DNA from: Gemmatimonadota bacterium
GTDB lineage: Bacteria > Gemmatimonadota > Gemmatimonadetes > Gemmatimonadales > GWC2-71-9
Direction of reading: 5' to 3'
Assembly: GCA_039586365.1 (NCBI GenBank)
Contig: JBDHKN010000098.1
Coordinates: 1 to 16,406, forward strand
DNA: 16,406 nucleotides
The notes beneath the pieces are model-generated. The model was given only the letters and a program-made list of their open reading frames with translations, did not search any database and was not told where the DNA came from. The first letter of the stretch is position 1. Every line of letters starts with the position of its first letter. A program made the position numbers and the translations under genes. Shown piece by piece: positions 5,260-5,912 of this stretch.

Positions 5260-5290
5260 ATTGGAGGGGCGTCGGTGGATGCTCCATTCA

Positions 5291-5380
5291 GAACGGTGTG
5301 AATCGGTATGCGTCGGTATGTAGTGGTACGTCGGGGTAGTAGGACGTATGAGAGCGTTTGAAGCGTATGGATACGAATGA
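5291..5380 (+). repeat. Degenerate tandem repeats with about 10-bp period
   Basis: GAACGGTGTG/AATCGGTATG/CGTCGGTATG/TAGTGGTACG (5291-5330) are followed by CGTATG, CGTTTG, CGTATG and CGAATG at 9-10 bp spacing (5345-5379). Confidence 0.55.
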
Positions 5381-5453
5381 GTACGCCCGATGCAGCATGA
5401 TCATAATCCACTGAGCGGCGGTGAGACCCCGACTCCGTGGCGGCCGGAAGCTG

Positions 5454-5473
5454 TGTCAGTTTCTATGTCAGTT
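5454..5473 (+). repeat. Direct repeat TGTCAGTT x2, candidate integrase arm-type sites
   Basis: TGTCAGTT occurs at 5454-5461 and 5466-5473 (12-bp period), about 105 bp upstream of a tRNA 3' fragment. The arm-site role is inferred from position only. Confidence 0.5.
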
Positions 5474-5579
5474 GGGTAGTACAAAGTCTTGCATGGAGGG
5501 ACATGAAGTACAACAACGGACGACACGAACTCGCAATTTGACAACAAGTTGCAACGAAACGATGTAAGACTTGGCCCGC

Positions 5580-5730
5580 CTCTTAATCAGTAGGTTGACC
5601 TGCGGCGCTGCGCGCCTCGGTCCGCTCTCCCAACCCAATCACCCCACACCTCGCGTTCGGGGTTCACGAGCAACCGCAGGCGTGCGCGATCTCGGCTCAC
5701 CTCCGCATCCGAGTCCCTGGCGGGGTACTA
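5580..5730 (+). pseudogene. 3' half of tRNA-Lys(CTT), att-site-like fragment interrupted by two short insertions
   Basis: Joining 5580-5596, 5658-5665 and 5711-5727 gives CTCTTAA TCAGT AGGTT CGGGG TTCGAGT CCCTG GCGGGGT A. This reads as anticodon loop (CTT), 3' anticodon stem, 5-nt variable loop, T-stem CGGGG/CCCTG (one G-U), T-loop, 7-nt acceptor strand and discriminator A, then CTA rather than CCA. No 5' half lies upstream. Confidence 0.75.
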
Positions 5731-5752
5731 CAGCTAACTCCTTACTAGAGCT

Positions 5753-5786
5753 AACGCTGGCCTATCGGTCGGCGTTTTTGTTTCTT
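5753..5786 (+). terminator. Rho-independent terminator downstream of the tRNA fragment
   Basis: The stem AACGCTGGCC-TATC-GGTCGGCGTT (10 bp, two G-U pairs) is followed by TTTGTTTCTT. Confidence 0.7.
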
Positions 5787-5912
5787 CGCCCTGGGGTAAA
5801 AGGCAGCTTTTGTACGACTGCCCTCGGTCCCTTTCAGACAACCCCTTTGCGCTATACACTTGGCTCGACCAAGGCGGATTGGCGGGCGTGAGGCCCTAGA
5901 GTCGCCTGTAAG

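Follow-up and report, generated by a model that had tools for sequence, protein, structure and literature searches.

Organization of the locus

The window, by which we mean the whole 16,406-nucleotide stretch of DNA analyzed here, is an entire contig of a 5.4-Mb Gemmatimonadota genome (86% complete), and it carries the 3' half of a tRNA-Lys(CTT) divided into three pieces by two small inserts, with the following features on the forward strand:

5440-5579, forward strand: conserved end of a tRNA-Lys-targeting integrative cassette, putatively the P side of attR; 78-91% identity to the stretch before same-genus Lys fragments
5451-5461 and 5463-5473, forward strand: paired direct repeats of repeat family D3
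5580-5596, forward strand: tRNA-Lys(CTT) piece 1, from the anticodon loop to the variable loop, ending in the first GGTT motif; identical to the intact genes in G002 and G003
5597-5657, forward strand: insert 1, at an off-T-loop GGTT^CGG site, delimited by its fold and by orthologues in G005, G518, L328 and L371; it consists of a hairpin (5597-5622), a CGCT linker (5623-5626), a C-rich spacer and the tail end
5658-5664, forward strand: tRNA-Lys piece 2, the 5' strand of the T-stem and the start of the T-loop
5665-5709, forward strand: insert 2, a 45-bp deletion remnant of an 80-bp two-hairpin T-loop insert, aligned with G005, L371 and G003
5710-5727, forward strand: tRNA-Lys piece 3, from C56 to the discriminator; identical to the intact genes
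5753-5782, forward strand: terminator-like hairpin and T-run behind the tRNA fragment (fold z -1.85), a putative terminator

The insert positions given in the initial annotation, 5597-5657 (61 bp) and 5666-5710 (45 bp), hold, the latter being equivalent to 5665-5709 with a C at both ends, and the tRNA 3' half rebuilt from the remaining pieces (5580-5596, 5658-5664 and 5710-5727) matches relatives with 0 mismatches. Intact tRNA-Lys(CTT) genes of the same genus in G002 (L032) and G003 (L050) served as references, and the three pieces also match empty att copies in G002 (L031, L046) and G008 (L007). No intact tRNA-Lys(CTT) gene was found in the 86%-complete assembly to which the window belongs, and ARAGORN and Rfam searches detected nothing at the locus. 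Of five genomes compared, a Gemmatimonadaceae genome has the UvrC closest to that of this assembly (54% versus 38-43%), which points to Gemmatimonadota.

The locus is real rather than an assembly artefact, since the insert at the first site is found again in G005, in G518 and at L328 and L371, two metagenome loci, with G005 and L371 having inserts at both sites. In addition, the insert junctions are covered by contigs of four estuary or sediment sequencing runs, one of which may be the source sample, and one run contig spans 5599-5928 with 1 differing letter. Position 5707 is G in all four runs versus A in the window, the G restoring the common tail letter, while a joint that skips 5609-5682 is present in three runs, has 29 letters on one side only and may derive from another organism. 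Orthologous loci with zero or one insert, as envisaged in the initial annotation, were found as well: the Lys fragment is empty at L031, filled at the T-loop only in G003 and at G002 L004, filled at the upstream site only in G518, at L328 and at G005 L034, and filled at both sites in the window, at G005 L002 and at L371.

On the antisense strand, the loop of the insert 1 hairpin reads C-GCA-G, and the subfamily of insert 1 is also found at the T-loop in G002 L004. Insert 1 is matched by our model R1, with the caveat that this row belonged to the R1 training set. Compared with the 80-bp form in G005, G003 and L371, insert 2 has lost 36 nt at a short direct repeat, and it folds no better than shuffled sequences (z +0.83). 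Since insert 2 is an 80-bp element minus 36 nt, the resemblance initially seen between the two inserts stands in part and is in part chimeric, the left arm of one hairpin having been joined to the right arm of another. As to the junctions of insert 1, the GTT present at each had been read as a possible 3-bp target duplication, but an extra T is carried by only 1 of 90 distinct family inserts, which is insert 1 of the window itself, and the orthologues of insert 1 have ends that differ from this copy.

At 5415-5425 the window contains an 11-bp inverted copy of the insert 2 tail, followed by a worn 15-bp copy of a T-arm 3' half (5429-5443); these repeats possibly represent a decayed older fragment, or chance.

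The tRNA fragment as an attR scar

Judged by its sequence context, the Lys fragment is an attR scar, i.e. a displaced tRNA 3' half, within a stack of cassettes, because in G002 and G003 cargo units of 2.3-2.4 kb, which lack an integrase and finish with the same element end, follow an intact tRNA-Lys gene. The 140 bp before the fragment constitute this conserved end, which is found before many Lys fragments in the genus and whose D3 repeat pair may, by analogy with tyrosine integrases, represent arm-type sites of the cassette. The locus shares with the attR fragments of tRNA-integrating islands and with tandem integrase-less cassettes, which we take to be CIME-like, a 3' tRNA fragment that starts at the anticodon loop and lies downstream of cargo, a preceding conserved element end with paired repeats, and tandem cargo units of 0.6-3 kb. 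As a whole, the contig is made up of stacked cassettes that derive from several integrase systems. Neither an intact tRNA nor an integrase is present in the window, and the genes of the window are of cargo type (transporter, FMN reductase, MacB/FtsX permeases, peptidase, PadR, kinase), with no recombinase among the 11 scanned, in line with the earlier statement that the window holds no cognate enzyme. The sole damage described in the accessible sections of the Islander paper (PMC4383910) is a small deletion near the discriminator, in contrast to the structured insertions reported here.

The window also contains two element ends of other tRNA-targeting systems. At 5290-5408 lies one that resembles those before tRNA-Arg fragments on contig C3 and that terminates in a short remnant resembling a Met anticodon loop, and the stretch 2131-2240 matches element ends in G002 loci that precede a Met fragment. 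Behind tRNA-Arg(TCT) on G000:C3 (16900-19800), repeated 3' fragments form a tandem array whose units each contain one or two small lipoprotein-like ORFs and a shared leader. At L229 (4261-4723), and also behind the Lys fragments in L002 and L004, there is an ORF, presumably of the GxxExxY type, together with a short repeat of the kind that we take to be usual beside such genes.

A family of small inserts in tRNA-derived DNA

A family of very small non-autonomous elements had been suggested in the initial annotation; that such a family exists, gene-less and with a strong tie to tRNA sequence, is borne out by 93 copies, corresponding to 90 distinct inserts of 37-80 bp, in Gemmatimonadota-like genomes, where about 14 tRNA types are hit (labels by best match). 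The loci examined comprised those supplied by the searches, 80 regions chosen by eye and 77 metagenome loci, and the finder, which required a hairpin and tRNA-matching flanks, returned 97 parses, of which 4 double parses were dropped. Pattern searches, with chance matches included, gave matches in 60 of 401 genomes at the phylum level (17 control matches) and in 70 of 301 genomes at the family level, and a minimal-form pattern was found at 22 places in 11 of 201 genomes with 0 control matches; the genome tallies include the unpublished G021 and G106, and no claim depends on either. The insert motif thus occurs elsewhere in the same genome and in relatives and is enriched in tRNA fragments, as anticipated in the initial annotation. 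In the genome of the window, at least 5 further clear members (one in tRNA-Pro and four in tRNA-Phe) and a worn one are present, and 7 of the 10 model matches at E<=1 lie in tRNA-like fragments by eye; BLAST of the inserts against this genome returned chance-level words only, and the members emerged only from structural searches.

The samples searched beyond those genomes gave no sign of the family. There were 12 matches in 11 of 121 Acidobacteriota genomes versus 11 control matches, matches in 6 of 61 Eisenbacteria versus 16 control matches, and 2 weak model matches, not tRNA-linked by eye, among 61 Myxococcota. The minimal form was absent from a Gemmatimonadaceae-centred sample (0/26), the viral scan yielded 1 match that was not tRNA-linked, and plasmid BLAST yielded 1 chance match. 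A scan of the genome collection with the right-end motif was discarded as chance-dominated: only 3 of its 120 loci passed a crude T-stem test, and none of these was a tRNA by eye.

The inserts follow the grammar GGT-K-[hairpin]-YGCT-[none or extra hairpins]-NCGCR-W-CR, with a tail that is usually a mini-hairpin and a minimal size of about 38 bp. Some of this conservation is built in, because the search patterns fixed part of the tail and of K and W; with K and W left free in the pattern, K was G in 20 and W was A in 18 of 22 matches. The basal 4 bp are complementary in 85 of the 90 distinct inserts, one basal pair being fixed by the search pattern, and the tail Y-R pair is complementary in 87. 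In a 29-row alignment, one of the basal pairs shows 15 double changes and the tail pair shows 8, values that none of 500 shuffles reached and that are inflated by related rows.

At the junctions, T55 of the tRNA (or the equivalent T) is replaced by K and W, which read T,T in 44 inserts, G,A in 32, T,A in 8 and G,T in 6, and T55 is absent at both junctions in 32 of the 90. Both flanks agree with the cognate tRNA at their locus and are otherwise unchanged, with no co-conversion seen in the flank comparison. At L328 and L469, K and W are kept and the insert body is gone, which is a possible excision footprint. With regard to spread, inserts that are 89-95% alike occur in different targets, and the nearest neighbor lies in a different target for 29 of 76 inserts and in the same target for the other 47. 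Because no identical copies were found in different tRNA types and 47 of 76 neighbors share a target, the inserts may have spread largely by passive means, and they may move only rarely or have moved only long ago.

Target site and strand

The T-loop accounts for 82 of the 93 copies. The remaining 11 (7 in tRNA-Pro, after the anticodon, and 4 in tRNA-Lys) lie at other tRNA positions that share the GGTT^CR motif, so the T-arm per se, initially proposed as the target, is too narrow a description: the target is the GGTT^CR motif within tRNA-derived DNA. Independent double insertions, as in the window, also occur in tRNA-Pro fragments. With patterns asking only for GGTK and a hairpin, tRNA context was assigned by script to 55 of 65 strong-hairpin matches versus 5 of 23 weak ones, against a background of 88 among 7067 GGTTCR sites in the genome of the window. 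Of the 10 strong-hairpin exceptions, several proved by eye to be tRNA fragments and about three did not; listed among the latter are L422, L464 and two chance matches in coding sequence. This comparison includes 60 regions selected visually for good hairpins, which makes the metagenome set, being unselected, the cleaner test; there, 13 of 16 strong stems are tRNA-linked by script and the other 3 by eye. A family-type hairpin in a repeated T-arm-like unit with no recognizable tRNA was observed at L422 and L487 (G032:C43 9680). On the same contig, L047 (G032:C43 38150-38623) contains three tandem full-length tRNA-Lys copies with duplicated upstream sequence, of which the first two have T-loop inserts and the last is intact.

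A strand signal accompanies the target preference. Apical loops read C-TNC-G (49) or C-TNNC-G (9) in 58 of 94 parses and in the opposite sense in 0, the loops not being fixed by the patterns; on the antisense strand relative to the tRNA, these loops are GNA/GNNA mini-hairpins. Also on the antisense strand, the internal loop places GA opposite GNA, an arrangement that would allow sheared G-A pairs. A published account (PMC13037366) describes hairpins of the type GCGNAGC/GCGNNAGC as extraordinarily stable in DNA, with far lower stability in RNA, and places GNA/GNNA mini-hairpins at single-strand origins. As the DNA-stable GNA/GNNA caps lie on the antisense strand only, the acting molecule would be folded single-stranded DNA.

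Comparison with known systems

The initial annotation recognized no named element that fits, yet a close analogue exists in the RtT or rttR repeats (E. coli tyrT-tyrV locus, RF00391), even though the inserts are not members by test. Both are gene-less multi-hairpin modules behind tRNA genes, with a GGTTCGA motif on one side and a repeated tRNA 3' end on the other, so that a hairpin module ending in a tRNA 3'-end copy at a tRNA locus is common to the two; both have C-TNC-G capped arms, and a GCCC-TTC-GGGC arm is found in RtT and in long family members. In RtT, on the other hand, the GNA caps are on the tRNA-sense strand rather than the antisense strand, the junction lies after GGTTCGA rather than at T55, and the closing stem is an inverted tRNA 3'-end copy, whereas window positions 5400-5800 contain no such copy and the left flanks of the family are true tRNA sequence. 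The family further differs in its minimum of about 38 bp, its off-T-loop sites and its double insertions. The RF00391 model gave no match in the window (E<=5) or in 12 family loci (E<=2), with the control L508 scoring 105 bits, and model R1 did not match the RtT core. With no RF00391 match, the opposite strand, a different junction and no inverted tRNA copy, the inserts are RtT-like in design and outside RtT membership. When a test pattern was run on Enterobacterales, the one T-loop-like insert (1/61) was RtT. Two sources (PMC7542023; 10.1101/2024.07.17.603846) give the function of RtT as unknown.

REP/REPIN-RAYT and IS200/IS605-type elements resemble the family in being short imperfect palindromes with a conserved foot, no coding capacity, presumed movement in trans and slow turnover. 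The family differs from them in its few copies per genome (about 8 in G000), its restriction to tRNA-derived DNA and the lack of Y1 clustering and of a GTAG/CGTC tag, and a REP assignment was rejected, the inserts not being high-copy dispersed repeats. A MITE was likewise rejected, as the ends are asymmetric and there is no target-site duplication. The attC sites of integrons are comparable as strand-specific DNA hairpins with unpaired bases, a GNA-type apical loop and a GTT-containing target, and are distinguished from the family by the RYYYAAC/GTTRRRY core pair, the cassette ORF and the linked integron integrase. The names TRIP and tRIP, possibly used for tRNA-linked palindromic repeats, did not turn up in our literature search; nor did this search, which covered openly accessible papers, find the insert family described, and an earlier description is possible.

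Search for a mobilizing enzyme

Mobilization in trans, as put forward in the initial annotation, is a reasonable inference, but no enzyme was found for it. Among 145 ORFs flanking inserts, 3 tyrosine integrases or remnants and 1 IS21-like ORF were detected, which makes tyrosine integrases the only recurrent recombinase near inserts, and the genome of the window contains 11 tyrosine integrase matches. The suggested link to REP/RAYT or GIY-YIG enzymes found no support: Y1_Tnp is present in 5 of 5 genomes tested, but the insert motif is absent beside it at 12 loci from these 5 genomes, and the GIY-YIG search returned long UvrC-like frames and a few weak short matches. Y2_Tnp, present in 1 of 5 carrier genomes, gave no link, and a reverse transcriptase was rejected, being present in 2 of 5 genomes and absent from the single-contig carrier G166. 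No autonomous long copy was seen among 20 loci checked for a distant right end.

Proposed mechanism and alternative explanations

We consider it reasonably probable that the locus is an attR scar which received two independent insertions of a non-autonomous micro-element moving as single-stranded DNA in trans. The micro-element would move as a folded single strand, with catalysis supplied in trans. The most likely enzyme, tentatively, is a tyrosine recombinase drawn from those acting at tRNA att sites, which would use the hairpin as a substrate in the manner of integron attC; an HUH transposase is the next candidate and somewhat more doubtful. Tyrosine recombinases are favored on two grounds: the element keeps to their att sites, and the Lys fragment is often truncated at the very two sites that carry inserts (L005, L006, L035-L039). 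Insertions would survive only in redundant tRNA copies, from which they may spread passively with the cassettes and decay by deletion, as with insert 2. If a cassette were excised through a filled attR, the tRNA so rebuilt would be broken, which would presumably lock the cassette in. Points against this explanation include, besides the lack of a linked enzyme or autonomous copy in our searches, the exchange of T55 for two element-derived bases, which is expected neither from a simple single-nick HUH insertion nor from one tyrosine crossover, and the range of targets, since isotype-specific integrases do not readily account for one element entering many tRNA types.

The inserts might instead be non-autonomous HUH elements (IS200/IS605-, RAYT- or IS91-like), in which a Y1 or Y2 transposase binds the antisense hairpin and inserts it without target duplication. 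Strand-specific bulged hairpins, the lack of duplication and the universal presence of Y1_Tnp in the genomes tested agree with this, as does a tail end that is precise while the other end can join elsewhere, duplicating 13 bp or more (L242, L318); moreover, IS91 cuts at CTTG/GTTC, which the target tetranucleotides of the inserts resemble. Such an origin is nevertheless unlikely, given the 12 Y1 loci without an adjoining motif, the single Y2-bearing genome and the IS608 guide-pairing rule, which did not fit by inspection, and it explains neither the restriction to tRNA-derived DNA nor the loss of T55. Movement in the present is not needed if the inserts are passive relics, i.e. a few ancient insertions that cassette arrays carried from genus to genus and that duplication or gene conversion multiplied, no enzyme being active on them today. 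Subfamilies do follow tRNA type across genera (Trp, Ser and Met sets), near-identical copies lie within single arrays (G160, G007, G262) and most nearest neighbors share a target. However, one and the same site can hold several unrelated subfamilies (Lys and Pro T-loops), a single subfamily occurs at different sites, double insertions recur and stems keep compensatory changes, which leaves this scenario improbable.

Least likely of all, with only a slight chance of being correct, is that the inserts are RtT-like structured RNAs retained behind tRNA promoters for a role in processing or termination or as a small RNA. The annotation of RtT as a processed sRNA, the K-Y positions, which can be read as G-U wobbles in sense RNA, and the full-length interrupted tRNA copies with duplicated upstream sequence in G032 are compatible with such a role, but the sense loops are UGC, UUC or UAC triloops instead of GNRA or UUCG tetraloops, it is the other strand that has the stable caps, and most copies lie kilobases behind the tRNA gene, after cargo.

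Returning to insertion of a single-stranded micro-element, a bolder and rather doubtful extension is that units of 38-80 bp such as these rank among the smallest mobile DNAs with site specificity, being gene-less single-stranded hairpin cassettes that would parasitize tRNA-targeting recombinases, with GGTT^CR insertion in any tRNA-derived att site, a 2-nt excision footprint and island locking; RtT would then be their gammaproteobacterial opposite-strand branch and not primarily a small RNA.

Relevance to RtT-type repeats and genomic islands

For decades, annotations have listed RtT-type repeats as small RNAs whose function is unknown. The family described here is a real, well-defined RtT-type relative with good mechanistic handles and no enzyme linked to it. 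It reduces the RtT-type design to about 38 bp and offers what RtT lacks, namely alleles with and without inserts, a defined target motif that extends to sites off the T-loop, precise rules for the junctions, a candidate footprint of excision and a strand bias toward DNA mini-hairpins. In this regard, the family suggests that RtT-like repeats move as folded single-stranded DNA, and the origin and mobility of such repeats become testable with oligonucleotides and a few host enzymes. Island-mapping tools that need an intact tRNA fragment will miss filled att sites, and a filled attR suggests a route by which islands become fixed.

Cargo-less units were also observed behind tRNA-Trp, tRNA-Gln and tRNA-Pro (G000:C51 at about 760-880 and 26130-26260, G000:C125 at about 148100-148270, L236 and L242). 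They consist of a terminator, in some cases an inverted piece of the tRNA end, hairpins and a second tRNA 3' end from C56, and are closer to the classical RtT layout.
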